Assembly (NCBI GenBank): GCA_040902515.1
Contig: JBBDXB010000006.1
Span: 499,419 to 563,418, forward strand
Reading direction: 5' to 3'
DNA from: Patescibacteria group bacterium
GTDB lineage: Bacteria; Patescibacteriota; SICC01
DNA length: 64,000 bases
Below, piece after piece: positions 17,251 through 61,180 of this stretch. The notes under the pieces were generated by a model, which saw only the letters and a list, made by a program, of their open reading frames with translations, was not told where the DNA came from and did not search any database. Position numbers and translations under genes: made by a program. Position 1 is the stretch's first letter; every line of letters starts with the position of its first letter.

Positions 17251-17256
17251 GTGGCC

Positions 17257-18015: not shown

Positions 18016-18049
18016 AAAATCCGCCGGACATAAGCCCGCCGGATTTTTA

Positions 18050-44131: not shown

Positions 44132-44268
44132 GAGAGGCTCCTCAAGGGGCGAGTCCTGGCTGTTCCAGTCCGCTGCTCATACGAGTAGTTTTCTGGCAGA
44201 ACCCGCCCCTTGAGGGCAGGAAACAGAAAACTCGTATGAAGCGGGTGGGACATGGAACAGCATTCTTA

Positions 44269-44460
44269 TTATACGCCCTCCCGCTTGGCGTCGCGCTCTC
44301 GAATTTTTCCAACGTCGCCCTCCGTGATCGGCTGATATACGAGACTCATTGTTCGCAGAACTAACTCACCCTTTTCCCGGGCTTCCTCATGGCTCAGGAC
44401 AACCCCGAATTTCTTCTTATAGATTTTTTGAAATCCAGCGATTTCGGATTGAGTGAGCAT
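44269..44460 (-). CDS. small conserved protein (63 aa), paralog of 60166..60423
   Basis: Shares the F.KIYKK.FG...S.EEARE.G..LLR.M..VY.P.T...V...RERD.KR pattern with the 85-aa ORF at 60166. Confidence 0.5.
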   Translation of the reverse strand: MLTQSEIAGFQKIYKKKFGVVLSHEEAREKGELVLRTMSLVYQPITEGDVGKIRERDAKREGV

Positions 44461-44475
44461 TGGGTAAAACGGCTG

Positions 44476-45483: not shown

Positions 45484-45950
45484 TACTGCTCAATTCTTGC
45501 CATGTACACAGCAACGCTGAACGGCATCGCATGGATATTAGTGATGTATGCGATGGTATCGCCACCGATAGCGCATTCACCGCACCAGAAAGTGTTACTG
45601 TCTGGAAACACCTGAAACTCCTTCGTGTGATGAGCGAAAGGGCAGGACGGAACATTTTTTTGAGAACCTTTATCTTTCTCCATATAGATGACATCCCGAA
45701 GAGGAAGGTCTTGGGCGTACTGGATATCACATCTCCATGTATGACCAGTGATGTCGTTGACGAAAGGATTGAATAACAGTTTCAGTCGTGAACGGAGACT
45801 CAGGTATTCGTTCCAGTGGCCGTCGCATGTACACCACCGACTACCCCTAACTTCACAAAGTAGATTTCTTATCACCCAAAACTTCGTTCTTACACATTCG
45901 GTCAGGACGAAAAGAAGAGAGTATTTGATTTGTTTCTTATCTGCCCGCAT
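45483..45950 (-). CDS. CHC2-type (DnaG-like) zinc-finger protein; the conserved part is the C-terminal 65 aa (alternative start at 45680)
   Basis: CPFAHHTKEFQVFPDSNTFWCGECAIGGDTIAYI matches the CHC2 primase zinc-finger pattern CPFH..K.PSF.V.....F.CFGCG.GGD.I. Confidence 0.6.
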   Translation of the reverse strand: MRADKKQIKYSLLFVLTECVRTKFWVIRNLLCEVRGSRWCTCDGHWNEYLSLRSRLKLLFNPFVNDITGHTWRCDIQYAQDLPLRDVIYMEKDKGSQKNVPSCPFAHHTKEFQVFPDSNTFWCGECAIGGDTIAYITNIHAMPFSVAVYMARIEQ

Positions 45951-46179
45951 GGAGTCGATCCTTGATTAGCTTGGTGTGTACTAAAACGACGCGAGGGTTA
46001 AGTGACAGTTGGTCTTTGTAGAAGGCTTCGGCATCCTGCTCGGCCGAGCCTGAATTAGAAAATTGGAACACAGAACGACTGTGGTTCGTGCGATCCACAG
46101 TTTCGAGATGATGGCCGAGAGCGCTGAGCGCAGTGGCCAAATGGAAATCAGAAGTATCGAATGTATCTGCTTGCTTCAT
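45937..46179 (-). CDS. small DUF5659-like protein (80 aa)
   Basis: FDTSDFHLATALSALGHHL...RSVFQF.NS...AEAFYKDQLSLNPRVVLVHTKLIKDRL follows the recalled DUF5659 pattern. Confidence 0.45.
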   Translation of the reverse strand: MKQADTFDTSDFHLATALSALGHHLETVDRTNHSRSVFQFSNSGSAEQDAEAFYKDQLSLNPRVVLVHTKLIKDRLHAGR

Positions 46180-46264
46180 AATCGGTTCATAAAAAGCCGG
46201 AGCTTTACTCCGACAATATGAGGCAACAGATTAACCGCCTAGTTGGGTGGGAAAAGTGAAATAT

Positions 46265-47344
46265 CTATTCAGACCATATGTAGCGGTTTTCCTTCATATA
46301 GATTGGAAAATCTTCACCCGTTTTTACACCTAGCCTCGTACGCAAATTCCTGTACGTGTCGTAAACGTCTTTTCGTTCCTTGAATGGCCTTGTGAGCGAC
46401 CCGTACCTGTCTTGCTGTTCAATAATTTCGGCCGCGCGCCACGGGTCGTTCTTCCCTTCGGCTAAGAACTTGACCAACGTAAGAGGGCGAGAATTTGAAG
46501 ACAGCCTAGCCTCTTTATTCTTGAACCTAAGAGTCTGCTTGTCCGGGTCGAAGAGGAGGCGGGGCTGAAAGTCAGCATCTTCATCGAGCGCGCTAACTAG
46601 TTCTTCATGAACCTTCCCCGCAGGGTATGCGTATTTGGATTTGTGGAATGTCTCATTCTTTTTCTTGAACTGGAACGGGTGGAAGTCGAGAAGTTCGTTC
46701 AACTCAGAGCAACGATCGTTATACTCTTCCAACTCCCGGTGATCTGAATACGGCAGCTCACCAAATGCATGGCGCAGTCGGTACAGCTCAAGTAGCTTCT
46801 GCCATGCTCCCCAAATTGAGTCGCGTTCCTTTAGCTTCGACTCAGCAACCACATCAGTAACGTACCGGATATATGCAGGCGATTTGATGGATACATCGAT
46901 ATCATCTGCACTGTGTTCCTTGATCGTCGCGTACTTCGCCCAAATTTCTTCACGACCATCCGCAAATAGAGCCTTCAAGATTTTCCGCAAGATGGACTCG
47001 TACTGTCCGGCGCGCCATATTTCGCTGTGACTAACATCATGGACTGCCTTTGCGCTTTTGAAGTCGGCTGAATGCTCGGGTAAATCCTTACAGTCCTTTT
47101 GGAGAAGCACTATGAGCTTCCAAAGTTCGTACGAGGCTTCCTTGGACAGCCGCTCCGCTTCTCGGTCGAGTCGCTTCTTCTCGGTGTTGAAACGCTTCTC
47201 AGATATTTTTCGGAGAGTATCCGATCCACGGACGAAGCGGACGTAATCCGCAAGACCTTCGAAATAGCCGGGATCGTCGAGACCCTCGAAAGTGCGATAC
47301 TGGCGCACCAGCTGGCGCTTCAGAGTCGCAGGTGTTTCCGGCAT
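46265..47344 (-). CDS. hypothetical protein (359 aa)
   Basis: Long ORF inside the island. Confidence 0.6.
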   Translation of the reverse strand: MPETPATLKRQLVRQYRTFEGLDDPGYFEGLADYVRFVRGSDTLRKISEKRFNTEKKRLDREAERLSKEASYELWKLIVLLQKDCKDLPEHSADFKSAKAVHDVSHSEIWRAGQYESILRKILKALFADGREEIWAKYATIKEHSADDIDVSIKSPAYIRYVTDVVAESKLKERDSIWGAWQKLLELYRLRHAFGELPYSDHRELEEYNDRCSELNELLDFHPFQFKKKNETFHKSKYAYPAGKVHEELVSALDEDADFQPRLLFDPDKQTLRFKNKEARLSSNSRPLTLVKFLAEGKNDPWRAAEIIEQQDRYGSLTRPFKERKDVYDTYRNLRTRLGVKTGEDFPIYMKENRYIWSE

Positions 47345-47440
47345 TGGATATTCATATTCATCACCGGCAGTTTACTACTGCACTAAGGCGAATGTTCAAG
47401 TCAACGGACAACCCGCATGGACGAACTAGAGGTGTGTTCG

Positions 47441-47686
47441 CTACAGATCCTTGAGTAGCTGGTCTGCCGGAACCTTCAGTCCCTTGGCTAGGCGGTAGAC
47501 AGTCCGAACCGTAGGGCGCATACGTCCCTGCTCGATAAACCCTATGTGCTTCCAATCGACTCCGCTCTTTGCGGCCAGTTGCTCTTGTGTGAGGGACTTC
47601 TCGTTTCGGAGTTTGGCTAGTCTCTTACCCACGGAGTCGAGAAAGCGTTCCTCTTGTCCTGAACTCATAGACCCAGCGTCCGCCAT
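47441..47686 (-). CDS. XRE-family helix-turn-helix transcriptional regulator
   Basis: RLAKLRNEKSLTQEQLAAKSGVDWKHIGFIEQG HTH_3 pattern. Confidence 0.8.
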   Translation of the reverse strand: MADAGSMSSGQEERFLDSVGKRLAKLRNEKSLTQEQLAAKSGVDWKHIGFIEQGRMRPTVRTVYRLAKGLKVPADQLLKDL

Positions 47687-47724
47687 GCCGAGCTACGGCA
47701 ACACTAAGATATATTAGTGTGTGT

Positions 47725-49545
47725 ATGGCTACTGCTACCGCAAAGCGTGAAATCCCAGCCGAAGTAAGGGCGGAAGTACTTGAGCGTGATGAAAACAAGT
47801 GTAGGGAATGCGGATCCAAGCAGGGACTCAACCTGCACCACGTCTTGCCGGAACAGTTTGGTGGCAAAGAGACTCCCGACAATCTGATAACCGTCTGCAA
47901 GCTCCACCACAAAGCGAAACACGTGGAATTCCACATGTTCTATGGAGATAGCCGTAGTGTGGTTGCGCATATGAGGCGCTACGCCGACCAGGTACGTCAG
48001 CTGAGCGGTAACTTCTTCGGGTTGATGGGCGAGGTACGGCTTAAGCCCGTTCTCTACCTGCTGACCGGACAACGGACATTCCGTCCAAGTCAGGAAGAGG
48101 TAATCCGGGACGTGCTGGCGGGGCGTGACGTGTTATTTGTGACCCCGACAGGATCAGGGAAGTCACTTTGCTTTCAATTGCCGGGTCTTTTACTAGACGG
48201 ACAGACCATGGTTATTTCACCCCTGAAGTCTCTGATGAAGGATCAGGTTGAAGGATTGCTCAAACGGAAAGTACCAGCTACCTATATCAACAGTGACCTC
48301 GGTACGCATGAGAAAAACCAGCGGATAAAGTTTGCCTTAGAAGGGTTGTTCCGGTTCCTATATGTAACCCCCGAGCGGTTTTTCCAGCCGCGCCTCAACC
48401 TGAAGAACAGACTTATTCGAAAGTACAAACTGTTGGCGGTAGACGAAGCTCACTGCATCGATCTCTGGGGGCGCAACTTCCGGCCTTCTTACGCGAAGCT
48501 AGGAGAGCTGAAAAAGGCTCTGGGAAGTCCTCCGACCTTGGCGCTCACGGCAACGGCATCGAAACGAGTCCAAAAAGAAATACTTAAATCCCTTGATATG
48601 CCGAACGCGAAGCGTTACGTCACGGGTTTTCACCGCCCGGAGATTGAACTTTATAACCTGCAAATACCGGTCGGCTTCAAAGATGAAAAGACAGGGGACT
48701 TACTCAGAAGCGAAGAAAAAGTCGATGCCGCGAAAGCGGATCTCATCGAGCGGATACTCAAAGCTCCGAAGTACTACAAGCCAAACCCTCGGCGCCGGTG
48801 GCGAATGATAAAACGAGATATTGCTCCTAAGAAATTCGCGTTGGTTAAGGATGCGCTTTCAGAGCATCGAGAGCAGAGGGTTTCTTTCTACCAAACTTTC
48901 TTTCGGAAGTATAAGGGAGAGCTGCGCGCGGCGGTAAAGCTCATCCGGGACAAAAAACTCAAGCGTGGCGTGAGCCGTTTGACCAAGGCTCGCCAGAAAG
49001 TGCTTTGGCAGACGTATCAGATCGTCAATGACGACAAAGTTCTGATATTCGTGCCGACCGTTACCAAGGGAAAGGAATTAAGAAAAGAGCTAGAGAAGCG
49101 GGGCATTGCCATTGATTTCTACCATGGGAAACTGCCGGTTCACGAAAAAACCCAAGTACAAAACCGCTATTCCGGACTGTTTGGCAAGCAAAGCCGGGCG
49201 CTGATTAGCACCTCCGCATTCGGCATGGGAATAGACATTTCAAACATCAGGCGAGTGGTTCACTACTCGGTTACGGCAAGCCTAGAGGATTACTATCAGC
49301 AAATCGGGCGAGCGGGCAGGGATCGCAAGCGGTCTAAAGCGTTTCTGCTCTATGCCCCGGGCGACGAGGAATTAATCCGCTTCATGAACGAAGTTTCCAA
49401 AGAAGACAAGGAGGAACCGCTAACCGCACAGCAACGAGAACGCCTCGTTCAAATCGAAGAAAAAGAGTTGTCGGCAATGCTCGACTATCTCCAGGCGCCC
49501 CATCAATGGCGTCACATCCTCGATTACTTCGGAGAAACCGTTTAG
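47725..49545 (+). CDS. HNH endonuclease fused to a RecQ-family DNA helicase (no RQC/HRDC domains; about 130-aa basic insertion between the RecA lobes)
   Basis: N-terminal CRECGS...LHHVLP...DNLITVC..HH; RecQ motifs TFRPSQEEVIRDVLAGRDVLFVTPTGSGKSLCFQLP, VISPLKSLMKDQVEGL, LLAVDEAHCIDLWGRNFRPSY, AFGMGIDISNIRRVVHY, QQIGRAGRD. Confidence 0.85.
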   Translation: MATATAKREIPAEVRAEVLERDENKCRECGSKQGLNLHHVLPEQFGGKETPDNLITVCKLHHKAKHVEFHMFYGDSRSVVAHMRRYADQVRQLSGNFFGLMGEVRLKPVLYLLTGQRTFRPSQEEVIRDVLAGRDVLFVTPTGSGKSLCFQLPGLLLDGQTMVISPLKSLMKDQVEGLLKRKVPATYINSDLGTHEKNQRIKFALEGLFRFLYVTPERFFQPRLNLKNRLIRKYKLLAVDEAHCIDLWGRNFRPSYAKLGELKKALGSPPTLALTATASKRVQKEILKSLDMPNAKRYVTGFHRPEIELYNLQIPVGFKDEKTGDLLRSEEKVDAAKADLIERILKAPKYYKPNPRRRWRMIKRDIAPKKFALVKDALSEHREQRVSFYQTFFRKYKGELRAAVKLIRDKKLKRGVSRLTKARQKVLWQTYQIVNDDKVLIFVPTVTKGKELRKELEKRGIAIDFYHGKLPVHEKTQVQNRYSGLFGKQSRALISTSAFGMGIDISNIRRVVHYSVTASLEDYYQQIGRAGRDRKRSKAFLLYAPGDEELIRFMNEVSKEDKEEPLTAQQRERLVQIEEKELSAMLDYLQAPHQWRHILDYFGETV

Positions 49546-49602
49546 CGACCTTTTAACTATCGTTGCGCTAAGATTGCTGTATATGCAGATGAAAGCTGAT
49601 GA

Positions 49603-52600
49603 ATGAGTACCGACCAAACATTTCTTACGAATGAGCCGGGAAAACGACTCGTAGACCGGTTCAGGACGCTTATCAACGATACCCGGCTATTTGACTGTCT
49701 GGTCGGGTATTTCTTTGCCAGCGGTTTTCATCAGCTCTACAACTCTTTAGAAAAAACCGAGAAAATCCGCATCTTGATTGGTCTAAAAACTGATCGCACC
49801 GTGAAGAACCTATTTGACGAAGGCCAGATACCGCTCGGCGACTCCCACGCGGAAATCCGAGATGAGGGAGCTAAGCAATTGGCGAAAGAGATGGCTGAGT
49901 CTGACGACAGCCCGGACGTAGAAGCCGGAGCAAAGAAATTCATCGAATGGATACGAAGCGACAAGCTAGAAATCCGCGCTTGCAACGAACGTCTTCACTC
50001 CAAGCTGTACATCATGTCCTTCAAGAAAGGCCACATAGACGAAGGGCGGGTTATCACCGGTTCCAGCAACTTCACTAGTCCCGGACTGAAAGATAACCTT
50101 GAATTCAACGTCGAACTTAAGAACCGCTCTGATTTTGACTATGCCCTGAACAGTTTTAACGAACTATGGGAAAAATCAGTCGATTTGTCGGATCGTTTCG
50201 TGGATACGATGTCGAAAGATACTTGGCTTAACGACAAGATCACCCCATACGAGCTATACCTGAAGTTCCTGTATGAGTATTTCAAGGAACGACTCTCACC
50301 GGAAATCACAGCCGAGGACATTTACCTGCCCGAACGCTTCAAGAAGCTCCAGTATCAGCAAGAGGCCGTTGCTAGCGCGTACAAGATAGTTCGTGAGTAT
50401 GGAGGGGTATTCCTGTCCGATGTGGTCGGCCTCGGCAAGACCTACATGGCGGCGATGCTGGCAAGCCAACTTGAGGGTGGAACTTTGGTAATTGCGCCCC
50501 CATCGCTTCTCGACGAGAACAACCCCGGATCGTGGCCGAATGTATTTCGAGACTTTGGAGTGCGGCGCTTCCGCACGGAGTCGCTCGGAAAACTAGACCA
50601 TTTGCTTACACAAGGGGTCGAGCGGTACAAGAACGTCATCATCGACGAGTCGCACCGTTTCCGCACTGAGGACAACAAGACCTACGAGTCGTTGGCCAAG
50701 ATATGTCGGAACAAAAGAGTCGTGTTAGTTTCTGCGACTCCGCTGAATAACACTCCCAAGGATATCTTTTCCCAGATCAAGCTTTTCCAGCCACCAAGGA
50801 AAAGTGACATCCCGGGTGTCTCGAACCTCGAAGAATTCTTCGGGAGTCTCGACCGGAAAATCAAGAAGATTAAACGTGGAGAAGATTTTGAAGGATACGC
50901 GAAGACGACAAAGGAAAACGCCAAGGAAATCCGCGAAAAGGTACTTCGACATCTAATGATCCGTCGAACCCGCAAAGAGGTGGCTGAGTTCTTCAAAGAC
51001 GATATCGAAAAACAGGGCTTATCCTTTCCGGAAGTGAAGAACCCGAAGGCTGTCTACTACCAGCTCAGCAAGGAAGAAGATCGGATTTTTACGAGAACGC
51101 TGACGCTAATCAAGAACCTTAATTACGCCCGGTACAAGCCGATGCTCTATTACCTCAAGGACATTGGGCAGGCCGAGGAGCAGGCACAGATTAACCTCGT
51201 AAAGTTTATGGAAGTGTTACTGGTTAAACGCCTCGAAAGCAGTTTCTTCGCGTTTCGTCAGACCATTGACCGGTTCGTAGCGACCTATGAAGGTGCCATC
51301 TCGGAGTACGACAACGGCCGTGTCTTTGTGAGCAAGAAGTACGCCAATAAGATTTTCGGGTTACTGGAGTCTGGGGACGAAGACGGTATCCAGCACCTCT
51401 TAGCAACGAAGGATGCGGATGCCTATAAATCTTCTGATTTCAAAAAGACTTTCCGGGAAGACCTAGTGGCCGACTTGAAGGCGCTTCAGGAAATCCAGTC
51501 GATTTGGAAATCCATTAAGCGCGATCCGAAGCTTGAGCAGTTACTAGCAGATCTAAAATCAGAAGACGTTCTAAAAAAGAGCAAACTGATTATTTTCACG
51601 GAGTCAGGGGAGACTGCCGACTATCTGCACAAAGAGATTTCAAAGCATTCTAAGGAAGCCATTAAGTTCTCAGGCTCGTCTAGCGAAGAGCGACGTCGGC
51701 AGGTCATCGATAACTTCGACGCGAACGCACGCAATAAGAGTGATGAATTCAGGTTGCTAATCACTACAGACGTCTTAGCTGAAGGCGTGAACCTTCACCG
51801 CTCTAACGTAGTCCTGAACTACGACATCCCTTGGAACCCAACGCGGATGATGCAACGGGTCGGCCGGATCAATCGTGTAGATACACCCTTCAAAGTCATC
51901 CACTCATACAACTTCTTCCCGACGACTCAAGCAAACACGCAGATTAAGCTGCAAGAAGCGGCTGAGGCGAAGATTATGGCGTTTATCGACATGCTTGGCG
52001 CGGATGCGAAGTTGTTGACCGAGGGAGAGGAAATCAAGTCGCATGACCTCTTCAGCCGCCTGAATTCGAAAGCTACGATTACTGGCGAAGAAGAAGACAC
52101 AGACAGTGAGCTGGCATTCTTCGAAGTGATTAGGAACGTCAGGGACAAAGACTCGAAGCTGTTTGCGAAGATCAAACGGTTGCCGAAGAAGGCTAGGGCG
52201 GGTCGCAAAGCCAAAGACTCACGTCCGGGCTTGGTTACCTACTTCCGCAAAGGAAGGCTTGAAAAGTTTTACCTGTCTTCAAAAGAGATTGATTTCATGG
52301 AAGCTGCCAAAGTGTTTGAGGCTGAACCACAAGAGAAGACAGTTCCGCTAGACAAGGCATATTACTCACTGCTGGATCGGAACAAGGGGGCGTTTACTGC
52401 TGCGACGACCGAGGACGAAGAGGCGGCCAAGGGCAGGGGCGGCCGGGATACGACCACCAAACTCAGGAACATACTTACCTCCAGTGAGATGAGAGGTTAC
52501 GAAGGCTTCTCTGACGAAGATGAAACATTCTTGAATGGTGTCGTCCGAGCGCTAGAAGAGGGCAGCGTACCTGCTCACACGCGCAAAGAGCTTCACAAAG

Positions 52601-52767
52601 CGCTAGAAGCGGAGATTAAGGGTGGAAAAGCCAACCAGACCAGAATTTTGGCACTAACCAGACGGAACTTCCCGGAAGAGTTTCTCGCGTCCAACCGTGA
52701 TACCGGCAATCGTCAAGCGGGCCCGCGCGAAGTAATACTTTCCGAATACTTTGTTCAGAAGAAGTGA
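49603..52767 (+). CDS. PLD-family nuclease domain fused to an SNF2-family (DExH) helicase
   Basis: HSKLYIMSF...GSSNFTSPG (HxK...GSxN) at the N-terminus; SNF2 motifs LSDVVGLGKT, IIDESHRFR, VLVSATPLNN, helicase-C ITTDVLAEGVNLH and MQRVGRINR. Confidence 0.85.
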   Translation: MSTDQTFLTNEPGKRLVDRFRTLINDTRLFDCLVGYFFASGFHQLYNSLEKTEKIRILIGLKTDRTVKNLFDEGQIPLGDSHAEIRDEGAKQLAKEMAESDDSPDVEAGAKKFIEWIRSDKLEIRACNERLHSKLYIMSFKKGHIDEGRVITGSSNFTSPGLKDNLEFNVELKNRSDFDYALNSFNELWEKSVDLSDRFVDTMSKDTWLNDKITPYELYLKFLYEYFKERLSPEITAEDIYLPERFKKLQYQQEAVASAYKIVREYGGVFLSDVVGLGKTYMAAMLASQLEGGTLVIAPPSLLDENNPGSWPNVFRDFGVRRFRTESLGKLDHLLTQGVERYKNVIIDESHRFRTEDNKTYESLAKICRNKRVVLVSATPLNNTPKDIFSQIKLFQPPRKSDIPGVSNLEEFFGSLDRKIKKIKRGEDFEGYAKTTKENAKEIREKVLRHLMIRRTRKEVAEFFKDDIEKQGLSFPEVKNPKAVYYQLSKEEDRIFTRTLTLIKNLNYARYKPMLYYLKDIGQAEEQAQINLVKFMEVLLVKRLESSFFAFRQTIDRFVATYEGAISEYDNGRVFVSKKYANKIFGLLESGDEDGIQHLLATKDADAYKSSDFKKTFREDLVADLKALQEIQSIWKSIKRDPKLEQLLADLKSEDVLKKSKLIIFTESGETADYLHKEISKHSKEAIKFSGSSSEERRRQVIDNFDANARNKSDEFRLLITTDVLAEGVNLHRSNVVLNYDIPWNPTRMMQRVGRINRVDTPFKVIHSYNFFPTTQANTQIKLQEAAEAKIMAFIDMLGADAKLLTEGEEIKSHDLFSRLNSKATITGEEEDTDSELAFFEVIRNVRDKDSKLFAKIKRLPKKARAGRKAKDSRPGLVTYFRKGRLEKFYLSSKEIDFMEAAKVFEAEPQEKTVPLDKAYYSLLDRNKGAFTAATTEDEEAAKGRGGRDTTTKLRNILTSSEMRGYEGFSDEDETFLNGVVRALEEGSVPAHTRKELHKALEAEIKGGKANQTRILALTRRNFPEEFLASNRDTGNRQAGPREVILSEYFVQKK

Positions 52768-52768
52768 T

Positions 52769-55700
52769 ATGCAGAATACAGAAGCTACGAAGCTGGTAAA
52801 CGAAGTTCTCGGCAGCCCCTTTGATCGGGGCGGTTTTGGTTCATTAGCCAAGAATATCTTGAAGAAACTCGATGACCGAAGTGAAAACAGTACATTTTCG
52901 TATTCCGGGAACCTCATTCCAGACGCGTTCAAAGGTCATGTGAGCAAGTACGAGCGGCTGGGTAAGTACCAAGACCCCAGCAGTAAGCACCACACCGTTG
53001 ATGTGCTAATAGTTCACTTGGCAAAAACCGACGCCCTAGATCGGGCAAGGACGATGCAAAGGAACTTTATTGCCCGGTATCTAAATGGTAGTCGCGGCGG
53101 GCAACAAAAGGATGCGGCGCTAGTTGCGTTCGTAGCTCCAAATAGAAACGACTGGCGATTTTCTCTGGTACGAATGGATTACAAAGACTTCGGAACGAAG
53201 AAAGAACTTTCACCTGCACGCAGGTACTCATTCCTTGTGGGGCAGGATGAGCAAACTCATACAGCGAGAACGCAACTCGTAGACATTCTGACTTCTGACG
53301 AACTGCCGGATATAGAAGTACTCACATCGGCGTTCAATGTAGAAAAGGTAGGACAGGAATTCTTTGAAAGGTACAAAGAATTATTCCTTCAACTGAAGGA
53401 AGCCCTTGATGGAATGATTGAGTCAGACAAGTCCATTGCCCGGGACTTCAGCTCGAAAGAAGTGAGATCTGAAGATTTCGCAAAGAAACTACTGGGTCAA
53501 GTGGTCTTTTTATACTTTCTTCAGAAGAAAGGATGGTTAGGGGTTCCCAAAGAGAAAACTTGGGGCGAGGGGCCAAAGGATTTCCTTCGAAGACTGTATT
53601 TAGGGAAATACGGCGAATACAGTAACTTCTTTAACGATGTCCTTGAGCCTCTCTTTTATGAAGCACTATCCACGGAACGGAGTAAGCACTATTACGACCG
53701 ATTGAAATCAAAAATTCCTTTTCTCAATGGCGGATTATTTGAGCCAATCGACGATTACGATTGGGTAGATACCGACGTTTTGATACCCGACAAATTATTC
53801 TCTAATTCAGATAATGCAGACTTAGGTACTGGCATTTTGGATGTTTTTGATAGGTACAACTTCACAGTCAAAGAGGATGAACCACTTGATAAAGAAGTAG
53901 CGGTTGATCCCGAGATGCTGGGAAAAGTATTTGAAAACTTATTGGATGTCAGAGATCGTCGGTCGAAGGGTTCCTACTACACCCCTAGAGAAATCGTCCA
54001 TTACATGTGTCAGGCATCACTGCTTAATTACTTGGACTCCCGCATCGACGGGAAAATCTCTAGATCCGATTTAGAGTCTTTCTTAAGGACTTCCGACATG
54101 GTGGTAGAACATGACTCGCTCATTCAGAAAAGGGGAAAAGAAACCTCGGCATACCAATATAAATTGCCAGAAAATGTTAGGGCGTACGCAGATAAGATAG
54201 ATAGCCTTTTGTCTGAGGTGCGGGTCTGCGATCCGGCTATAGGCTCAGGCGCTTATCCGGTAGGGATGATGCATGAGATAGTTCGTGCCAGACAAGTTCT
54301 TGCAATATTCAGCAGCAAACCCTTTTCTGCGTATCAGCTCAAGCTAGACGTCATCCAAAACTCCTTATTTGGTGTTAATATTGACTCCGGAGCCGTTGAG
54401 ATTGCGAAACTCAGACTTTGGCTTTCACTTGTGGTCGATGAAAATTCTACGGACGAAATTGACCCACTCCCCAACCTTGATTACAGGATTATGCAGGGGA
54501 ACAGCCTCGTCGAAGATTTTGGAGAAATTGAACTATTCGACGCAGAAGTCCTAAAAGATGAGTCGTCGCGTGAGGGAAAGAAACTTGCAGTTCGTAACCT
54601 CAAAAAACAGGTTGAGACTCTGGAGAAAGAGTACCTCTCGCTTCATAAATCTTCTCAACTTACGGACGCACGCAAGAAAGCCATCAACAAGGAAATACGA
54701 AGAACACGTCGAAGGTTGAAATTATTAGCCGGCAGCAAAACAGATGACCGCCTCAGTCTGTTCTCGGACAAGGGTGAAGTTGATTACAAACAGGTTCTTC
54801 GAGAACTCTTTGAAAAGTTTTTTGATGCTTCTCATAAGAAAGAAAAAGATCAGCTTAGAAGTAATATAGAAGAAATCCAATGGCACTTAATTGAGTCTTC
54901 GTTAGTCAAAGAGGGTAAGGCAGACAAAATTGATGAGATTGAAGATTTACGCTCCAAAAAACAGAGACCTTTTTTCATTTGGCATTTGTACTTTCTAGAG
55001 GTTTTCGAAGAAAAAGGTGGCTTCGATATCGTCCTTGGCAATCCGCCGTACTTAGAGTCGCGACACCCCAACTTCAGCGAGTCAATGAAGGATGACGTAC
55101 AGCGTGCCGCCCATAAGAGGTGGCCGCAAGACGCCGATAAAATCACAAGGGGATCGGACTTACTTGTTTACTTTTTTGAACTTGGTCTTTCATTAGTAAA
55201 CAAAAGTGGGCAGGTCATCCTTTTGACACAAAACTCTTGGCTCGACACAGAATACGGAAAGAAGTTTCAAGAGTTCTTACTGAAGCATTCGAAGGTAGAG
55301 TCGATTATCGATAGCGATTTCAAACACTTTGATAGTCGCCTAGGACCCAACATTAATACAATCATCACAACTCTCCGATCGGGCGGTAACGAGAAGTCGA
55401 ACACCTATCTTGCAAAGTTTCACGAGAACTATTCTGATATGCCGCTTACGCTCTCAAGCAAACTGGGTAAATTAGCGACTATCAAGAATTTAACTTCGGA
55501 TAGTGGCCTGTTACAGAAGTACAAATGGGGATTTATTCTTTCGAGTAATCAAATATTGCTTGAAGCCGTAGATGCACTGAGTAAGAGCGGGCAATTCTTA
55601 TCCGAGCTAGATGGTATCTCGGTTGGGCAAGGGTTAAACGTGTCAAAATCTTCTATTTACGAGAAAAGCCTCTTAAAGAAGTTTCCCTTCGTAAAGAAAG

Positions 55701-56329
55701 CGACCGTACCTATCGCAACCAGTGCGGATAAGCCAAAGTTCGAAATAACTTCTGTCGAGTGCTTCTTAGTAGACTCAACTCGATTGTCGGAGGAAGAACG
55801 TGAAAAGTTAAAAAAAGCTGAGATTAATTTGTATACTTCGTCTTCAACGTCTAAGGATTATCCAACCATGTCGTTGCCTCGTGGCCTGAGTGATAAACAC
55901 TACTGCACCGTCCATGAAATAAAGACTCATACGGCAAGCGCTGTTGATCTTTATTCGGAGAAAGATTTTGGGAAAGATCTTCGACTACTGAACATCTGGG
56001 CAGTATTAAATTCGACATTAGGTTGGCTCATAAGAGAGACATCTGGAAGAAAGAATTTGGGCGGGGGAATGCTCAAGGCAGAGGCAGTAGACTTGAAAGC
56101 TTTTCCTCTGTATCTCGATCTGAAAAAAGACAAACAGATCAGCAAGATCTTTACGAAGACAAAAGGGCGGCTGGTGAAATCCGTGTTCGAAGAAATGAAA
56201 ACTGAAGAGCATAAAGCCATAGATAGGATTGTGTTCGACCACCTTTCGATACTCCCAAAAAATAGAAAAGGTTTGATTGATCTTACGCTTGAAACAGTTA
56301 GGGATAGGTATGCCAAATCCAAAACCTAG
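52769..56329 (+). CDS. gamma-class N6-adenine DNA methyltransferase of the MmeI/Eco57I/PglX/DrmMI lineage (about 1186 aa) with a long N-terminal domain and C-terminal putative target-recognition region
   Basis: Motif X YYTPREIV, motif I VCDPAIGSGAYP (nt about 54230), FFIWHLYFLEVF hinge, motif IV VLGNPPY (55040-55051), LNGGLFEP motif; the ATG at 52769 is 2 nt after the upstream stop (the track TTG at 52751 overlaps). Confidence 0.85.
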   Translation: MQNTEATKLVNEVLGSPFDRGGFGSLAKNILKKLDDRSENSTFSYSGNLIPDAFKGHVSKYERLGKYQDPSSKHHTVDVLIVHLAKTDALDRARTMQRNFIARYLNGSRGGQQKDAALVAFVAPNRNDWRFSLVRMDYKDFGTKKELSPARRYSFLVGQDEQTHTARTQLVDILTSDELPDIEVLTSAFNVEKVGQEFFERYKELFLQLKEALDGMIESDKSIARDFSSKEVRSEDFAKKLLGQVVFLYFLQKKGWLGVPKEKTWGEGPKDFLRRLYLGKYGEYSNFFNDVLEPLFYEALSTERSKHYYDRLKSKIPFLNGGLFEPIDDYDWVDTDVLIPDKLFSNSDNADLGTGILDVFDRYNFTVKEDEPLDKEVAVDPEMLGKVFENLLDVRDRRSKGSYYTPREIVHYMCQASLLNYLDSRIDGKISRSDLESFLRTSDMVVEHDSLIQKRGKETSAYQYKLPENVRAYADKIDSLLSEVRVCDPAIGSGAYPVGMMHEIVRARQVLAIFSSKPFSAYQLKLDVIQNSLFGVNIDSGAVEIAKLRLWLSLVVDENSTDEIDPLPNLDYRIMQGNSLVEDFGEIELFDAEVLKDESSREGKKLAVRNLKKQVETLEKEYLSLHKSSQLTDARKKAINKEIRRTRRRLKLLAGSKTDDRLSLFSDKGEVDYKQVLRELFEKFFDASHKKEKDQLRSNIEEIQWHLIESSLVKEGKADKIDEIEDLRSKKQRPFFIWHLYFLEVFEEKGGFDIVLGNPPYLESRHPNFSESMKDDVQRAAHKRWPQDADKITRGSDLLVYFFELGLSLVNKSGQVILLTQNSWLDTEYGKKFQEFLLKHSKVESIIDSDFKHFDSRLGPNINTIITTLRSGGNEKSNTYLAKFHENYSDMPLTLSSKLGKLATIKNLTSDSGLLQKYKWGFILSSNQILLEAVDALSKSGQFLSELDGISVGQGLNVSKSSIYEKSLLKKFPFVKKATVPIATSADKPKFEITSVECFLVDSTRLSEEEREKLKKAEINLYTSSSTSKDYPTMSLPRGLSDKHYCTVHEIKTHTASAVDLYSEKDFGKDLRLLNIWAVLNSTLGWLIRETSGRKNLGGGMLKAEAVDLKAFPLYLDLKKDKQISKIFTKTKGRLVKSVFEEMKTEEHKAIDRIVFDHLSILPKNRKGLIDLTLETVRDRYAKSKT

Positions 56330-57101
56330 TCCGAAGAAAGGATACACACGCACGCGCAATGTGTTCGACCCTGAGTCAGCTGATACGTATAAACTGTCTA
56401 GATCAAAGCTTGAGAACTTCATACGATGTCCTCGTTGTTTCTATCTTGATCGCCGACTCGGAGTAGGACAGCCGCAAGGCCCGCCGTTTCTACTGAACTC
56501 AGCGGTGGACGAGCTGCTGAAAAAGGAATTCGACCGACATCGGAAAGCTCAGACCAAGCACAAGATTTGCGAGCAATTCGGGGTGGACGCGATCCCACTC
56601 AATCACGAGAAGCTCGATATTTGGAGACACAACTTCGCCGGGCTGGAAACACTACATAAGCCAACGAACTTATTGATTTTCGGGGCGGTGGACGACATCT
56701 GGGTCAACCCGGCCGGGGAGTGGATTGTGGTCGACTATAAGGCCACCTCAAAGCGTGCTGAGATCACACTGGATACCAAGTGGGGCAAAGGCTACAAGAG
56801 ACAGTTAGAGATTTACCAGTGGATATTGAAGCAAAACGGCGAGCCCGTCTCGGAGACCGCATACATCCTGTACTGCAATAACATTCTTGATCGGGAAGAC
56901 TTCGATAATCGCCTCGATTTTGAGGTAAGCATGTTCAAGCACGAAGGCGATACCTCGTGGGTCGAGCCGAAGATTATCGAGGCTCATAAGGCTCTAGTTT
57001 CTGGTCAAATCCCCTCGCCAGCCGAAGACTGCGAGTATTGTGCTTACCGAGAAGCCGCGAGATTAAAGGAAGTCGATGTCACCAAAGAAATCAATCAGTG
57101 A
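56310..57101 (+). CDS. Cas4/RecB-like PD-(D/E)xK nuclease with N- and C-terminal CxxC pairs (putative Fe-S)
   Basis: IRCPRCFY...GAVDDIWVNPAGEWIVVDYKATSK (D, ExK)...RQLEIYQWIL...YILYC...EDCEYCAY; the ATG overlaps the MTase stop. Confidence 0.75.
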   Translation: MPNPKPSPKKGYTRTRNVFDPESADTYKLSRSKLENFIRCPRCFYLDRRLGVGQPQGPPFLLNSAVDELLKKEFDRHRKAQTKHKICEQFGVDAIPLNHEKLDIWRHNFAGLETLHKPTNLLIFGAVDDIWVNPAGEWIVVDYKATSKRAEITLDTKWGKGYKRQLEIYQWILKQNGEPVSETAYILYCNNILDREDFDNRLDFEVSMFKHEGDTSWVEPKIIEAHKALVSGQIPSPAEDCEYCAYREAARLKEVDVTKEINQ

Positions 57102-58008
57102 CCTCTCGGGCGAACTGAGGGAAGTAATCAATAGCAGTATTTCCCTGCGCAATCAGGTGTACCAACAGAAAGCAAAGGGAGCGTGGGATCGGCTTTGGGC
57201 TTCAATGGATGCGCTTGACGATGCACAACTCGCAATCGAGAAGTTCCAAAAAGCGTCCTCAATATCATATCTGGAGTTATACGGACTCCTGCAAGCTTTC
57301 ATTGTTCAACAGGATAGCGTTAATCACATACGGCAGACGACCCTTAATGCACCTCTGATTAAATGGGATAAAGCAGAGCCGAAACTTAATCAGATACGGT
57401 ATTTGAGAAACGAAACAGTTGGTCACCCGACTGACATTCGAACAGGCAAGACGATAGTCTACTGCAATATAAACCGCAGGTCGGTATCTAAAACGAGCTT
57501 CGAGTACATGATTTGGAGTCAGGCCGGAGCGCAACACAAAACCGTCGATGTGACTGATGTAATCAAAACGCAAGATGTCGAAGTCGCGCGCCTAATTAGG
57601 AAAATCATCGCTGACATTAAAGCGCATGAAGTTAGGTTTAAGAAGCAGTTTTCGGGAAAAAAATTGAAAACCGACTACTCGCAGATTAGTCACTACGAGT
57701 TCGAAAAACTTTATCTGTACCAAAACAACCCTGAAATTGCACAGATTATGTTCGGTTTAATAAAAAAGAAGTATGCAGAACTCCGGACTGAACTGGCAAA
57801 ACGCTACGGCGACTTTAGCACCACTATTAACGTCGGAGGTCTCAAAATTGTAATCGACGAACTGGACGAACTTGTTAAACGGGTTGGGACAAAATTGAAC
57901 GAAGGTGTCCCTGACGCCTTTGATTTCAATGTTTATGTCGAAAACCTAGATAGTAAATGGAAAGAACTGGGCGAAATGATCGATGAAACAGACGAGAAGT
58001 TTAGCTGA
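57076..58008 (+). CDS. hypothetical helical protein (310 aa) with a possible HEPN-like Rx5H motif (YLRNETVGH)
   Basis: ORF overlaps the previous stop by 26 nt; the motif match is weak. Confidence 0.55.
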   Translation: MSPKKSISDLSGELREVINSSISLRNQVYQQKAKGAWDRLWASMDALDDAQLAIEKFQKASSISYLELYGLLQAFIVQQDSVNHIRQTTLNAPLIKWDKAEPKLNQIRYLRNETVGHPTDIRTGKTIVYCNINRRSVSKTSFEYMIWSQAGAQHKTVDVTDVIKTQDVEVARLIRKIIADIKAHEVRFKKQFSGKKLKTDYSQISHYEFEKLYLYQNNPEIAQIMFGLIKKKYAELRTELAKRYGDFSTTINVGGLKIVIDELDELVKRVGTKLNEGVPDAFDFNVYVENLDSKWKELGEMIDETDEKFS

Positions 58009-58072
58009 TTATGGATTCATGCAAGGCGCGGAGTCATGGCTGCGGACTTAACGAAGGGGTAACCTTATAGCA

Positions 58073-59908
58073 ATGCGGGAAATTCATGGTGACGCAAAAA
58101 CCGTTCGGGACCTACTCAAAGGGGTTAAGTACTCCATTGACTACTACCAGCGTGAGTACAAGTGGGGCGGGAAACAGCTTCGCGAGCTTATCGATGACCT
58201 GAGTGGTAAGTTTTTGGAAGTCCACAAACCGGGCAACGACCGCAAGAAAGTTTCCGAATACCCCCACTACTTTCTCGGTTCGATCATCATCAGCAAAAAA
58301 GAGAGTGCGAATTATGTCGTGGACGGTCAGCAGCGTCTAACGACGTTGACCCTTCTCCTGATTTACCTAAGAAACCTCCAACGCGAGCGTGACGATAAGG
58401 TTTCGATTGACGAATTGGTCGCTTCCGAAACCTACGGCGAACAGTCATTCAACATCGAGGTAGACGAACGCATCCCGGTAATGGACGCGTTGTTTAGCAA
58501 TAAATCATTTGATGCGACTGACCGATCAGAGTCAGTACAGAACATCCTTAAAAGGTACGAGGAACTCGATGACGCTTTTCCCGAAGAACTGCGCGAAGAC
58601 GCGCTTCCGTATTTCATAGACTGGCTTCAGCAGAATGTTCATTTTGTGGAAATTACCGCGTATTCCGACGACGACGCCTACACGATTTTCGAAACGATGA
58701 ACGATCGCGGCCTTTCCCTGTCCCCGACGGACATGTTGAAAGGTTATTTGCTCGCGAATGTAGACAGATCCAAGCGTAATACCGCAAATGATTTTTGGCG
58801 CAAACGCATGAGCGAGTTAACCGATGTGGGTAAGGAAGCTGAGGCAGATTTCTTCAAGGCATGGTTGAGGAGCCAATACGCAACCAAGATCCGCGAGCGA
58901 AAACGGGGTGCTACTCCCGAGGACTTTGACCGGATTGGTACCGAGTTCCACCGGTGGTTGAGAGATGCCAGCAAGAAAATCGGCTTGGAACAAGACGACG
59001 ATTTCTATCAATTGATTGACCGGAACCTCAACTTCTACAGCCGACAGTATCTCGAATTGATGCGGGCGTCCCGGGAGCCAGTTGAGGGACTAGAACATGT
59101 ACTTTATAACGCCCACCATGGGTTCACCCTTCAATACATGTTGTTGTTAGCCCCGCTCACTCCAGACGACACTGACGAAGTAGCTCGGCAAAAACAGCGA
59201 CTAGTTGGGCAGTTCGTGGACATACTGATTACTCGAAGAATTTGGAATTTCCGATCCATCTCATATTCAACAATGCAGTACGCCATGTTCCTTGTTATGC
59301 GGAGCATACGAGGTCTCGAGCCCGACCAACTTGGGGAGACGTTAAAAAAGGCGCTTGGTGAGCAGGACGAGACTTTCTCAACCCAAGAAGACCTTTACCT
59401 ACATCAACAGAACCGGAGGGCTCTGCATCGGGTTCTGGCGCGCCTTGCTGACAGCGTAGAGGTTGGCTCGGGGCAACCGACGCAGTATATGAATTTTGTC
59501 AGTGACACCGGAAAAGACAGGTTCGAAGTAGAGCATATTTGGGCCGACAAATACGATCGGCATAAGGAAGCGTTTGCACACCCCAAAGACTTTGCAGATT
59601 ATCGTAATCGCATCGGCGGTCTCTTGCTCTTGCCAAAGAGTTTCAATGCTAGCTACGGTGATTTGGCATACGAGAAGAAACTCCCTCACTATCTGACTCA
59701 AAACCTACTTGCCCGGTCGCTGCACCCGCAGTGCTATGAGCGCAATCCTGGCTTTATAAAATTCGTGAAAGAAACCGGGTTGCCGTTCCGGGCTCACGAA
59801 AAATTTACGAAGGAAGATCTCGACGCGCGAGGAGCCCTCTATCGACAGCTTGCAGAATACGTATGGAACCCCAATAAGCTGATAGGTGATGACGTTAGCG
59901 GATCTTAA
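58073..59908 (+). CDS. GmrSD-family type IV restriction enzyme (DUF262 ParB-like NTPase plus DUF1524 His-Me nuclease)
   Basis: DYYQREYKW and VVDGQQRLTTL (DGQQR) in the N-terminal half; FEVEHIWAD...N..N in the C-terminal half. Confidence 0.8.
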   Translation: MREIHGDAKTVRDLLKGVKYSIDYYQREYKWGGKQLRELIDDLSGKFLEVHKPGNDRKKVSEYPHYFLGSIIISKKESANYVVDGQQRLTTLTLLLIYLRNLQRERDDKVSIDELVASETYGEQSFNIEVDERIPVMDALFSNKSFDATDRSESVQNILKRYEELDDAFPEELREDALPYFIDWLQQNVHFVEITAYSDDDAYTIFETMNDRGLSLSPTDMLKGYLLANVDRSKRNTANDFWRKRMSELTDVGKEAEADFFKAWLRSQYATKIRERKRGATPEDFDRIGTEFHRWLRDASKKIGLEQDDDFYQLIDRNLNFYSRQYLELMRASREPVEGLEHVLYNAHHGFTLQYMLLLAPLTPDDTDEVARQKQRLVGQFVDILITRRIWNFRSISYSTMQYAMFLVMRSIRGLEPDQLGETLKKALGEQDETFSTQEDLYLHQQNRRALHRVLARLADSVEVGSGQPTQYMNFVSDTGKDRFEVEHIWADKYDRHKEAFAHPKDFADYRNRIGGLLLLPKSFNASYGDLAYEKKLPHYLTQNLLARSLHPQCYERNPGFIKFVKETGLPFRAHEKFTKEDLDARGALYRQLAEYVWNPNKLIGDDVSGS

Positions 59909-60182
59909 GAGACGCCTTCGTCAAACGAAGTTCCGGTTCGCAAAAACCTATAGCGATACGTACCCCCACGAGTACCTGGTCAAAGAATTGGATGCTGCCC
60001 TCTTTGATGAAATGGCGAAGTTGATTGACGGGAAGGGCTACAAATCCGACTTCCACGGTCAGGAACATACGTACCTAGAGCTTGATGGTTACAAGTACTG
60101 GCACTATGAAACTATCCTTAACAGGGAGCCCCTGAAGGGGTACAAGGATGTAGAGAAGGAGTTAAATGCATCTGACCGATGA
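59889..60182 (+). CDS. hypothetical protein (97 aa)
   Basis: ORF overlapping the GmrSD stop. Confidence 0.45.
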   Translation: MTLADLKRRLRQTKFRFAKTYSDTYPHEYLVKELDAALFDEMAKLIDGKGYKSDFHGQEHTYLELDGYKYWHYETILNREPLKGYKDVEKELNASDR

Positions 60183-60423
60183 AGACATAGACGGGTTCCG
60201 CCGTATCTATAAGAAGCGGTTTGGCGAAGACATAAGCCGGGAAGAAGCACGGGAGGAGGGATCAAGCCTGCTTCGTCTGATGAAAGTCGTCTACAAACCA
60301 GTCACGCAGGAGCAGGTGGATAGCCTCCGTGAGCGCGATATGAAGCGAGTGGACGAAGCCTACGACTTTATCTTCGCAAAGGCTTTGAAAGAGAAGAAGA
60401 GTGAGTCAAATGCTGACGATTGA
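60166..60423 (+). CDS. small conserved protein (85 aa), paralog of 44269..44460
   Basis: See 44269..44460. Confidence 0.5.
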   Translation: MHLTDEDIDGFRRIYKKRFGEDISREEAREEGSSLLRLMKVVYKPVTQEQVDSLRERDMKRVDEAYDFIFAKALKEKKSESNADD

Positions 60424-60550
60424 AGAATGTCGGAAACACCTCCGGGACGACCGGGATCTCACCGACGAACAGGTTCTCGAGCTTCGAGATGCTCTCTATC
60501 ACCTGATTGAAACTGTTTGGGACGAGAAGCTTGGAGACAAGTCTGACTGA
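60410..60550 (+). CDS. 46-aa ORF (MLTIEECRKHLRDDRDLTDEQVLELRDALYHLIETVWDEKLGDKSD) overlapping the previous stop
   Basis: Hand-translated; below the track cutoff; a fourth consecutive overlapping start in the operon. Confidence 0.25.
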   Translation: MLTIEECRKHLRDDRDLTDEQVLELRDALYHLIETVWDEKLGDKSD

Positions 60551-61180
60551 CCTGTTAGGTAAAAGTGACCCCTCTATAGGAGAGCCGTTTTACCGCACCC
60601 TATCCTAAAATTTTTTCACAGATTTCTAAGACGGCCAGGTGACAGGGGGAGGAGAGAGAAAGGGGGGATAGGGGTAGTTACGTACAAATGTGACGTTATC
60701 TACTAGAAATTCCTGTTCCTAGCACGCGCAGTGCTAACCGATCATGAATTTCGGTAACTACGCCCGAGGGGAAAGGCGGGCAGGGGGAGACGCGAGATAG
60801 AGAATGCCATAGCCCTTTCGCTACTTCAGGCGTGAATTCTTCCCGTTTTGTTAGCCTCAGTCACTAAAAAGAGTGAATTAGGGTCGATCACCCACGCATG
60901 GCGGTGTTACCTTACAGTGCGTAGTGGTTCACCGTTGGCGTTACTGGCTTCGAGCGGGGCTAGGTGCGGGCTTCCCGGGAAGGGGGAGGGGCGAGAGACA
61001 TGGTAGATGGGACACTTTACGCACGAAAGTAACGCTCTTTCGGGAAGCTGCCGCCAAGAAAAAGGCTACTTTGCACCCCATGCCGCCGCACCCACCTAGG
61101 CTCTTACCCTTATCACTCACGCATAGCATCTGCCTTCAACCACACCTGCGGCCTGACTCACCGCGCTGCAGTAAACTGGA

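Follow-up and report, generated by a model that had tools for sequence, protein, structure and literature searches.

Two adjacent genes, both intact in the 64,000-nt window (the whole stretch of DNA that was analysed), encode a PLD (HKD) nuclease fused to an SNF2 ATPase and an Eco57I-type adenine methylase with a putative TRD, respectively. They form an almost obligate gene pair, kept together with a patchy distribution in hundreds of bacteria and archaea. Judged from its sequence features, the pair probably constitutes a self-contained two-subunit ATP-dependent restriction-modification (RM) system, the most likely reading being that of a split, Type ISP-like, ATP-dependent RM system. The pair has neither a name nor a model nor a characterised member; a literature search returned passing mentions only and no dedicated study.

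Gene layout and conservation of the pair

The two genes are carried on the same strand:

49603..52767, + strand, PLD(HKD)-SNF2 motor-nuclease gene (1054 aa; proposed restriction subunit)
52769..56329, + strand, Eco57I-type gamma-class N6-adenine methylase gene with TRD (1186 aa; proposed recognition/modification subunit)

The methylase starts at the ATG at 52769, whose Met is the first residue in all methylase homologues, one base after the TGA ending at 52767. An initial sequence-only reading described the two genes both as overlapping and as separated by 2 nt; the genes instead abut with a gap of a single base, and an overlap would require initiation at a TTG at 52751. A promoter and terminator scan of positions 47000-61200 returned sites no more numerous than in shuffled sequence and the limits of the operon could therefore not be set.

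The PLD-SNF2 gene was found immediately upstream of the methylase at nearly all of the 80 genome loci with upstream DNA. Only the PLD-SNF2 (73) and methylase (68) families were conserved over these loci, and no third conserved gene family was found among them. In the reverse test, which started from a PLD-SNF2 profile, the methylase N-terminal domain was located downstream at 56 of 57 metagenome loci. The spacing was at most 30 nt, or the genes overlapped by 1-8 nt, in 39 of 64 pairs, and the pairing also held for more distant PLD-SNF2 relatives (approximately 30% identity) from viral contigs and Prevotella nigrescens. One genome locus, L018, forms an exception with a methylase but no motor gene. 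At least 593 matching stretches were identified among species-representative genomes, covering many bacterial phyla and DPANN archaea; the pair is present on viral contigs as well. At some loci AlbA_2/HATPase or RhuM-like genes, which are riders of RM operons, sit between the two genes, and a Prevotella locus carries inverted Eco57I-domain fragments beside an invertase. Loci with inverted methylase-domain fragments near an invertase undergo programmed inversion (PMC9881135).

The PLD-SNF2 protein

The following features were assigned to the motor protein:

49603..50202, + strand, PLD/HKD nuclease domain (aa 1-200; single HKD motif, nt 49996-50103)
50338..52002, + strand, SNF2 ATPase core (aa ~246-800)
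50428-50442, + strand, Walker A, G276-T280 (SNF2 motif I)
50644-50655, + strand, DESH, residues 348-351 (SNF2 motif II)
52003..52767, + strand, C-terminal region (aa 801-1054; residues 891-1035 variable)

The HKD motif, H132-S-K134...G153-S-S-N156...E167, has the HxK...GSxN form of the PLD/HKD nuclease superfamily, and the protein matches Pfam PLDc_2 at 38.9 bits, well above the cut-off of 27. A weak match to the Pfam RE_NgoFVII PLD family (21.1 bits) falls under its 23.8-bit cut-off. Across 58 PLD-SNF2 homologues conservation is 95% or higher for H132, K134, Y136, G148, V150-N156 and EFNVELK, and the catalytic PLD residues are invariant in a second alignment of 32 sequences. In place of the Asp of HxK(x)4D the present protein has Ser, in agreement with the initial description of a single HKD-like motif with this substitution, and the family consensus has Thr; as the Asp is missing from the whole family, the change is a family trait and not a sign of decay. 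The PLD nuclease is intact.

The motor is likewise complete, as had been proposed. Both the SNF2 N-lobe (Pfam SNF2-rel_dom, 53.7 bits, cut-off 24.9) and Helicase_C (73.1 bits) were detected, and Walker A, DESH and motif VI (QRVGRINR) are invariant in the 32 aligned sequences, which places the protein in the SNF2 family of ATPases. The best PDB sequence matches of the motor were ISWI, Snf2 and Rad54, with DDM1 also among the matches, and the PADLOC model C3a139 'HKD+Snf2' matches the protein at 1e-50. Identity in the C-terminal region drops to 0.32 over residues 891-1035 and is 0.48 in the tail; the extreme tail 'GPREVILSEY' is conserved, with E1043, L1046 and S1047 invariant. The C-terminal region may serve for docking to the methylase.

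The methylase core and its putative TRD

The features of the methylase are as follows:

52769..53323, + strand, family-specific N-terminal domain (aa 1-185; probably a degenerate restriction-endonuclease fold)
53324..53893, + strand, helical domain preceding the methylase core (aa 186-375; counterpart in MmeI, PglX and HsdM)
53894..55408, + strand, methylase catalytic domain (aa 376-880)
54230-54256, + strand, motif I DPAIGSGAY (aa 488-496)
54518-54973, + strand, variable helical insert (aa 584-735)
55040-55051, + strand, NPPY (aa 758-761; about 425 aa lie beyond it)
55409..56329, + strand, variable C-terminal region, putative TRD (aa 881-1186)

Of the gamma-class Eco57I landmarks recognised at the outset, YYTP (residues 403-406), DPAxGSGA (motif I) and NPPY (motif IV) are not only present but invariant in the alignment of homologues. 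The order X-I-IV with NPPY, together with a Pfam Eco57I (PF07669) match of 105.7 bits (cut-off 25.3; 3.8e-30), identifies the protein as a gamma-class Eco57I-type methylase. The PADLOC model REase_MTase_IIG PDLC03596 matches it at 5e-201. The earlier label "MmeI-family" is too specific: the Pfam MmeI_Mtase match is marginal (28.9 bits, cut-off 27) and MmeI was not recovered at E<0.01 when the methylase family profile was searched against PDB sequences. That search did find CamA, BseCI, PglX, BrxX, DrdV and TaqI, with no Type ISP chain at E<0.01, and was more informative than a search with the single methylase sequence, which gave only weak matches to CamA. A chance pattern as the source of the methylase is excluded by an NCBI MAG protein of 100% identity and more than 8000 homologues.

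Variation is concentrated in two parts of the protein. The helical insert has an identity of 0.22 and is missing from about half of the homologues, and the mean identity of the C-terminal region is 0.30, against 0.58-0.61 in the constant parts. For many homologues the alignment covers no more than the first 49-52% of the query. The family profile alignment to CamA and BseCI runs through the putative TRD.

The methylase N-terminal domain

Residues 1-185 were found nowhere except at the N-terminus of the methylase's own family, and they bear a weak resemblance to the nuclease domains of Type IIL/IIG enzymes. A Foldseek comparison of this domain with the PDB gave no match at E<0.001. D69 is present in 85 and D78 in 100 of 104 sequences of the domain; the position of the ExK lysine, conversely, is occupied by Leu (L80) in 99 of the 104. 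L80 stands where DrdV has K81, which according to the DrdV preprint is the essential lysine whose mutation abolishes catalysis. The methylase N-terminus hence lacks the intact D...ExK triad of Type IIG/IIL enzymes, as the sequence-only reading had suspected, and an intact PD-ExK triad, which would have spoken for a classical enzyme, was not found, the two acidic residues being kept and the lysine replaced. The related suggestion of a nuclease-dead recognition/modification subunit is borne out insofar as the nuclease-like domain is without the canonical lysine, with D69 and D78 remaining. R94, R98, W129, R130, S132, R152 and S154 are invariant in the domain. Because two acidic residues and the invariant R94 are kept, the domain may still possess a residual or non-canonical nuclease activity. 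In residue number, R94 matches K94 of DrdV.

Comparison with known systems

A close parallel in overall logic is provided by the Type ISP enzymes (LlaGI, LlaBIII), which combine gamma-methylase-TRD recognition with a motor nuclease. In both cases an N-terminal nuclease and a dsDNA translocase powered by ATP (predicted for the pair) are combined with a gamma-class methylase whose TRD is C-terminal, and the order nuclease-motor-methylase-TRD is preserved over the pair's two genes. However, a Type ISP enzyme is one polypeptide, while the pair consists of two ORFs parted by a stop codon; the Type ISP nuclease is Mrr-like PD-QxK and that of the pair PLD/HKD; the Type ISP motor is HsdR-like and that of the pair SNF2-type; and the pair has an additional vestigial nuclease-like domain at the methylase N-terminus. 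The proposed resemblance to a split Type ISP enzyme thus holds for the logic but not for membership, given two chains, a PLD instead of an Mrr nuclease and a motor that is not HsdR-like.

The MANTIS/Gao_RL/BREX-related type-2 system (MtsA-D) likewise has an HKD nuclease fused N-terminally to an SF2 helicase-like ATPase and an adenine methylase for self-marking, and MtsD dimerises to form a single composite PLD site. It differs from the pair in having a DUF499 AAA+ ATPase and a DUF3780 protein, and its methylase is alpha-class (DPPY) whereas the gamma-class (NPPY) methylase of the pair carries a TRD of its own. DUF499, DUF3780 and an alpha-class DPPY methylase were not found in the window and are not conserved in related loci. 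NCBIfam NF042964 ('PLD-like domain-containing anti-phage protein') scores 130 bits on the PLD-SNF2 protein against a cut-off of 1100 bits, and membership of MANTIS/BR type-2 (Gao_RL) was rejected on the missing core genes and this score. SauUSI (Type IV PLD-helicase-SRA) also joins an N-terminal PLD nuclease to an SF2 ATPase, and its ATP-dependent cleavage is carried out by a dimer. In contrast to the pair, it has its own reader of modified DNA and attacks methylated DNA; in the pair, the target is presumably selected by a second protein, the methylase with its TRD, and the attack would be directed at unmodified DNA.

Class 1 DISARM (DrmD-DrmMI-DrmA-DrmB-DrmC) resembles the pair in placing an SNF2 helicase beside a large N6-adenine methylase, in addition to a PLD nuclease. 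Its core proteins DrmA and DrmB (DUF1998) are, however, absent from the pair, in which the PLD domain is fused to the SNF2 protein; neither the window nor any of 160 related loci yielded DrmA or DrmB/DUF1998. NCBIfam DrmD reaches 128 bits on the PLD-SNF2 protein against a cut-off of 610, and the idea of a DISARM relative, in the sense of membership, was rejected, as all DISARM model scores lie far under their cut-offs and core genes are missing. BREX (PglX) membership was rejected on equivalent grounds: BREX_1_MTaseX gives 75 bits on the methylase (cut-off 500), and PglZ and BrxC are absent from the window and not conserved over the 80 genome loci. The Hma and Dpd systems were discarded for missing core genes and sub-threshold scores.

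Compared with the Type IIL/IIG enzymes (MmeI, DrdV, BpuSI, Cj0031), finally, the methylase is without the catalytic lysine and almost always accompanied by a PLD-SNF2 partner, whereas these enzymes have no obligatory partner gene. In the PDB profile search no sequence similarity to MmeI could be detected.

Proposed mechanism and alternative explanations

In the two-subunit RM reading, the methylase-TRD subunit would bind a short, probably asymmetric target and methylate adenine with AdoMet, presumably leaving hemimethylated sites, and this mark would flag host DNA as self. Its N-terminal domain would be a vestigial Type IIL/IIG nuclease domain that has lost its catalytic lysine and most likely docks or regulates the PLD-SNF2 partner in a physical complex. 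Where the site is unmodified, the PLD-SNF2 partner would be recruited or activated and driven by ATP along double-stranded DNA. One chain is expected to provide half a PLD active site, and cutting would therefore require a second PLD domain as its counterpart, be it within a constitutive dimer or when one complex meets another; the break is expected away from the recognition site. Type ISP cleavage involves two head-to-head sites and converging translocation. MANTIS MtsD and SauUSI are PLD-helicase dimers sharing one PLD site. The sequences themselves show the domain content, the conserved catalytic residues, the near-obligate gene pairing and the variability of the TRD; an actual defence activity is predicted from these. 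Restriction-like behaviour is supported by the low identity of the C-terminal region (0.30, against 0.5-0.6 in the constant regions), the Prevotella inversion locus and the RM-operon rider genes; counting against the two-subunit reading are the acidic residues and R94 kept in the methylase N-terminal domain, SNF2 motors that act in defence sometimes without cleavage (that of MANTIS could not be reproduced in vitro), and the motorless locus L018.

It is unlikely that the methylase works on its own in the manner of the Type IIL/IIG enzymes MmeI and DrdV, cutting DNA through a non-canonical site (D69, D78, R94/R98), with PLD-SNF2 as an accessory that degrades or processes its products or broadens the defence. 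Against this stand the loss of the ExK lysine in 99 of 104 sequences, where DrdV needs K81, and the strict conservation of the PLD catalytic residues; a mere accessory would not be expected to persist in 56 of 57 loci with translational coupling. Rather improbable, too, is a BREX/DISARM-like block of phage replication without classical cleavage, in which SNF2 remodels or evicts proteins and the PLD domain is a phosphodiesterase acting on another substrate. The distant similarity of the methylase to PglX and DrmMI, and of the motor to DrmD and BrxHII, would fit such a block, as would the lack of an in vitro reconstitution of MANTIS cleavage. Nevertheless, PglZ, BrxC, DrmA and DrmB are neither present nor conserved, every NCBIfam score is far under its cut-off, and the fully conserved HKD site on a motor matches known cutters such as SauUSI. 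A non-defence pair, i.e. an epigenetic regulator or a repair/recombination module travelling on mobile elements, appears very improbable: the defence-island neighbours argue against it, as do the variable TRD, the conserved nuclease and the patchy spread over bacteria, archaea and viral contigs, even though phase-variable methylases can act as phasevarions and Cj0031 homologues alter gene expression (cited in PMC9881135).

A tentative extension of the preferred two-subunit RM reading is that the pair might represent a distinct, unnamed RM class, in which the dead nuclease domain of a Type IIL-like methylase has been put to use for the docking or allosteric control of an SNF2-PLD motor nuclease whose two PLD half-sites are joined by translocation. 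Databases and automated tools currently label the methylase alone as a single-protein Type IIG enzyme. If the distinct class is real, hundreds to thousands of such 'Type IIG' entries would be mis-typed, and with the pair prokaryotes would furnish an instance of the HKD-SNF2 fusions in restriction systems for which kinship to the eukaryotic SWI2/SNF2 remodellers, and a role as the source of TDP1, have been proposed. Should the SNF2-PLD motor perform restriction, the Type IIG annotation would be corrected, Type ISP and MANTIS would be joined by a counterpart made of two subunits, and a simple two-gene model would become available for the coupling of an SNF2 translocase to site recognition and a half-site PLD nuclease.

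Island context and the Cas4-like gene

In the window the pair is located in a low-GC island, adjoining GmrSD and other nucleases; GmrSD, KAP NTPase, MORC-like, HNH and UvrD-like genes are its defence-island neighbours here and elsewhere. No second tRNA-Trp copy or direct repeats marking the far end of the island were found within the window. Cas4-like, HNH-RecQ, orf310 and GmrSD were rejected as core members, as they are missing from almost all related loci. The gene directly downstream of the pair is

56277..57101, + strand, Cas4-like PD-(D/E)xK nuclease gene (Pfam PDDEXK_1 at 5e-14)

which probably starts from the ATG at 56310 and so overlaps the methylase stop. Of the earlier proposal that cleavage is delegated to the PLD and Cas4-like proteins, the PLD part is retained, the domain being intact in a conserved neighbour. 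The Cas4-like part is not, with homologues at only 5 of 80 genome and 2 of 80 metagenome loci. The Cas4-like gene is an occasional accessory and not a core component; where it occurs, it always lies downstream on the same strand.

Conservation and layout of the gene pair

The PLD-SNF2 protein and the methylase are encoded by an almost obligate gene pair. In the window the two long, intact ORFs fill the interval 49603-56329 on one strand:

49603-52767, + strand, PLD-SNF2 (motor) protein, 1054 aa
52751/52769-56329, + strand, methylase

The stop codon of the first gene is TGA, 52765-52767; the following ATG, at 52769, encodes the methionine with which all methylase homologues in the alignment start. 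The two genes are thus adjacent, with one base between them instead of the overlap described in an earlier sequence-only reading. The interval belongs to a low-GC stretch (0.43-0.53, as against 0.62-0.69 in most upstream sequence) beginning at about 42 kb.

Scanning species-representative genomes with the methylase alignment gave at least 593 matching stretches, and the 80 loci fetched span many bacterial phyla as well as Woesearchaeota, Nanoarchaeota and Altiarchaeales. By tblastn, nearly all loci having upstream DNA carry the PLD-SNF2 gene immediately before the methylase in the same orientation; one locus with such DNA (L018) gave no PLD-SNF2 match. All-against-all clustering of the 80 loci yielded only two conserved ORF families, the motor (73 loci) and the methylase (68). 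The intergenic gap is at most 30 nt, or is replaced by a 1-8 nt overlap, in 39 of 64 pairs, and the remaining pairs carry one extra gene between motor and methylase, typically of kinds that ride in RM operons, such as an AlbA_2/HATPase protein (11 loci) and RhuM-like genes. In the reverse test, metagenome contigs were searched with the motor alignment. Among the 57 loci that had 1.5 kb or more of downstream sequence, the methylase N-terminal domain followed on the same strand in 56. On viral contigs the pairing persists even where motor identity is as low as about 30%.

The inserted AlbA_2/HATPase gene (about 450 aa, "RecG-like"; loci L021, L022, L026, L041, L045, L047, L050, L057 and others) also has counterparts inside Type I RM operons. 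The pair is likewise kept in Prevotella nigrescens. On plasmid NZ_CP082843.1 (3139-14762; locus L081), a distant version of it precedes two inverted fragments of Eco57I-domain genes and an Mpi-family invertase, likely a shufflon that swaps the methylase specificity region.

The motor protein

Pfam matches to PLDc_2 (38.9 bits, residues 39-189), SNF2-rel_dom and Helicase_C were obtained for the PLD-SNF2 protein, and its top PADLOC model was "HKD+Snf2" (1e-50). The window protein was aligned with 58 homologues drawn from related loci. In this alignment H132, K134, Y136, G148, V150-N156 and EFNVELK are at least 95% conserved, as are the SNF2 motifs Walker A (G276-T280), DESH (348-351) and QRVGRINR. 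The single HKD-like motif and complete SNF2 motor that had been proposed are borne out. The Asp of HxK(x)4D is replaced by Ser here and by Thr in the homologue consensus, so that its loss is a family trait; in the PLD superfamily this residue is structural and is not known to be catalytic. Since each chain contains one HKD motif, a complete PLD active site needs two chains.

The methylase

Motifs YYTP (403-406), DPAIGSGAY (488-496) and NPPY (758-761) accompany a strong Pfam Eco57I match, and PADLOC classes the protein as Type IIG. Searched against PDB sequences, the family profile matched CamA (1e-30) and BseCI across the catalytic region and C-terminus, with PglX, BrxX, DrdV and TaqI next; MmeI gave no match at E<0.01. 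By these profile matches, the protein is correctly termed an "Eco57I-type gamma methylase", in place of the earlier "MmeI-family". Over residues 1-580 and the catalytic core, identity to homologues is 0.5-0.6; it drops to 0.30 at residues 881-1186 and 0.22 in the helical insert 584-735. A constant core joined to a variable C-terminus is what a specificity-bearing RM protein should show. The insert (window 54518-54973), long and poorly conserved, lies between motif I and NPPY; roughly half of the homologues have a short linker instead.

The N-terminal domain was found in 680 clusters by full-library search; it starts almost always at residue 1-12 among the best 150 of these, and full-length matches have about 1000-1300 aa. 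AlphaFold models of residues 1-375 and 1-185 have high confidence (pLDDT 89.9 and 87.8). D69 (85 of 104 sequences) and D78 (100 of 104) are spaced as in D-X(n)-ExK, and Leu takes the place of the lysine in 99 of 104, in agreement with the earlier remark that the triad is not evident; the DrdV counterparts are D64, E79 and K81, of which K81 is essential (DrdV preprint). R94, R98, W129, R130, S132, R152 and S154 are invariant, pointing to a preserved putative binding surface.

Proposed mechanism and alternatives

The pair probably represents a widespread and as yet uncharacterised form of ATP-dependent restriction-modification. The intact methylase with its variable TRD, the nuclease-like domain lacking Lys, the intact PLD-SNF2 protein and the near-obligate pairing together fit a two-subunit ATP-dependent RM system, which we consider the probable arrangement: the methylase would recognize and modify the site, the SNF2 subunit would translocate, and two PLD half-sites would pair to cut. 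Precedents are Type ISP enzymes, SauUSI and the MANTIS effector MtsD, a PLD-helicase dimer. The main rival, in which the methylase N-terminal domain still cuts via a non-canonical site, has the retained D69 and D78 on its side and the Leu at the lysine position against it, and is judged unlikely. The core of the sequence-only reading, a recognition and modification methylase with cleavage by its PLD-SNF2 partner, gains support from the pairing and the Lys-less domain.

Membership of known systems was rejected in each case. DISARM, to which the pair had been likened, is excluded because DrmA and DrmB are absent; the DrmD model, like those of HmaA, BrxH and "PLD-like anti-phage protein", matched PLD-SNF2 only partially and far under curated cut-offs. 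BREX is excluded by the absence of PglZ and BrxC, MANTIS/Hma by that of DUF499 and DUF3780 and by a gamma- rather than alpha-class methylase, and Type ISP by the two chains, the PLD nuclease and the SNF2 motor. In the literature library searched, the pair has only passing mentions, among them a general remark on bacterial R-M systems in which HKD domains are joined to SWI2/SNF2 ATPases (PMC3417536).

Neighbouring genes and the island

42468-42544, tRNA-Trp, start of the low-GC island
42479-44131, - strand, large serine recombinase, 3' end overlapping tRNA-Trp
47719-49545, + strand, RecQ-family helicase with an HNH nuclease fused at its N-terminus, 608 aa
from 56277, Cas4-like PD-(D/E)xK gene, overlapping the methylase stop
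57076-58008, orf310, 310 aa, overlapping the Cas4-like stop
58073-59908, GmrSD-type (DUF262/DUF1524) Type IV restriction enzyme

The HNH-RecQ gene, with DpdF-like and PsyrT-like PADLOC matches, shares the strand of the PLD-SNF2 gene and precedes it by 57 nt. Among 160 genome and metagenome loci there was no match to HNH-RecQ, orf310 or GmrSD, so HNH-RecQ is probably a separate defence gene; orf310 is without Pfam, PADLOC or NCBIfam match. Cas4-like genes occur in only 7 of the 160 loci, mostly in DPANN and CPR genomes, and the suggested Cas4 contribution to cleavage is not upheld; in five genome loci (DPANN archaea, CPR bacteria) the homologues lie downstream of the pair with variable genes between. 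The GmrSD-type gene would add a modification-dependent nuclease beside a methylase-based system. The most plausible reading of these four neighbours is that they are co-resident defence genes, carried by an integrative element sited at tRNA-Trp.

The island looks like an integrative mobile element carrying defence genes; a second copy of the att site or of the tRNA was not found within the window. Beyond the recombinase, the region 42468-47344 encodes an AAA_25 ATPase and a primase-like CHC2 zinc-finger protein, and then holds a 359-aa ORF without any Pfam match. The only repeat that the island yielded is an imperfect direct one of 44 nt (52448-52491 and 60044-60087, 73% identity), probably due to chance. 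A second low-GC patch (0.44) at 16000-18474, with two ORFs (332 and 252 aa) lacking Pfam matches, adjoins the tmRNA gene (18050-18474), a classic insertion site, and may likewise be an integrated element. The product of 61181-62011 (276 aa) combines an RNase H domain at residues 10-169 with a long and very basic extension at its C-terminus, an unusual arrangement for RNase HI.
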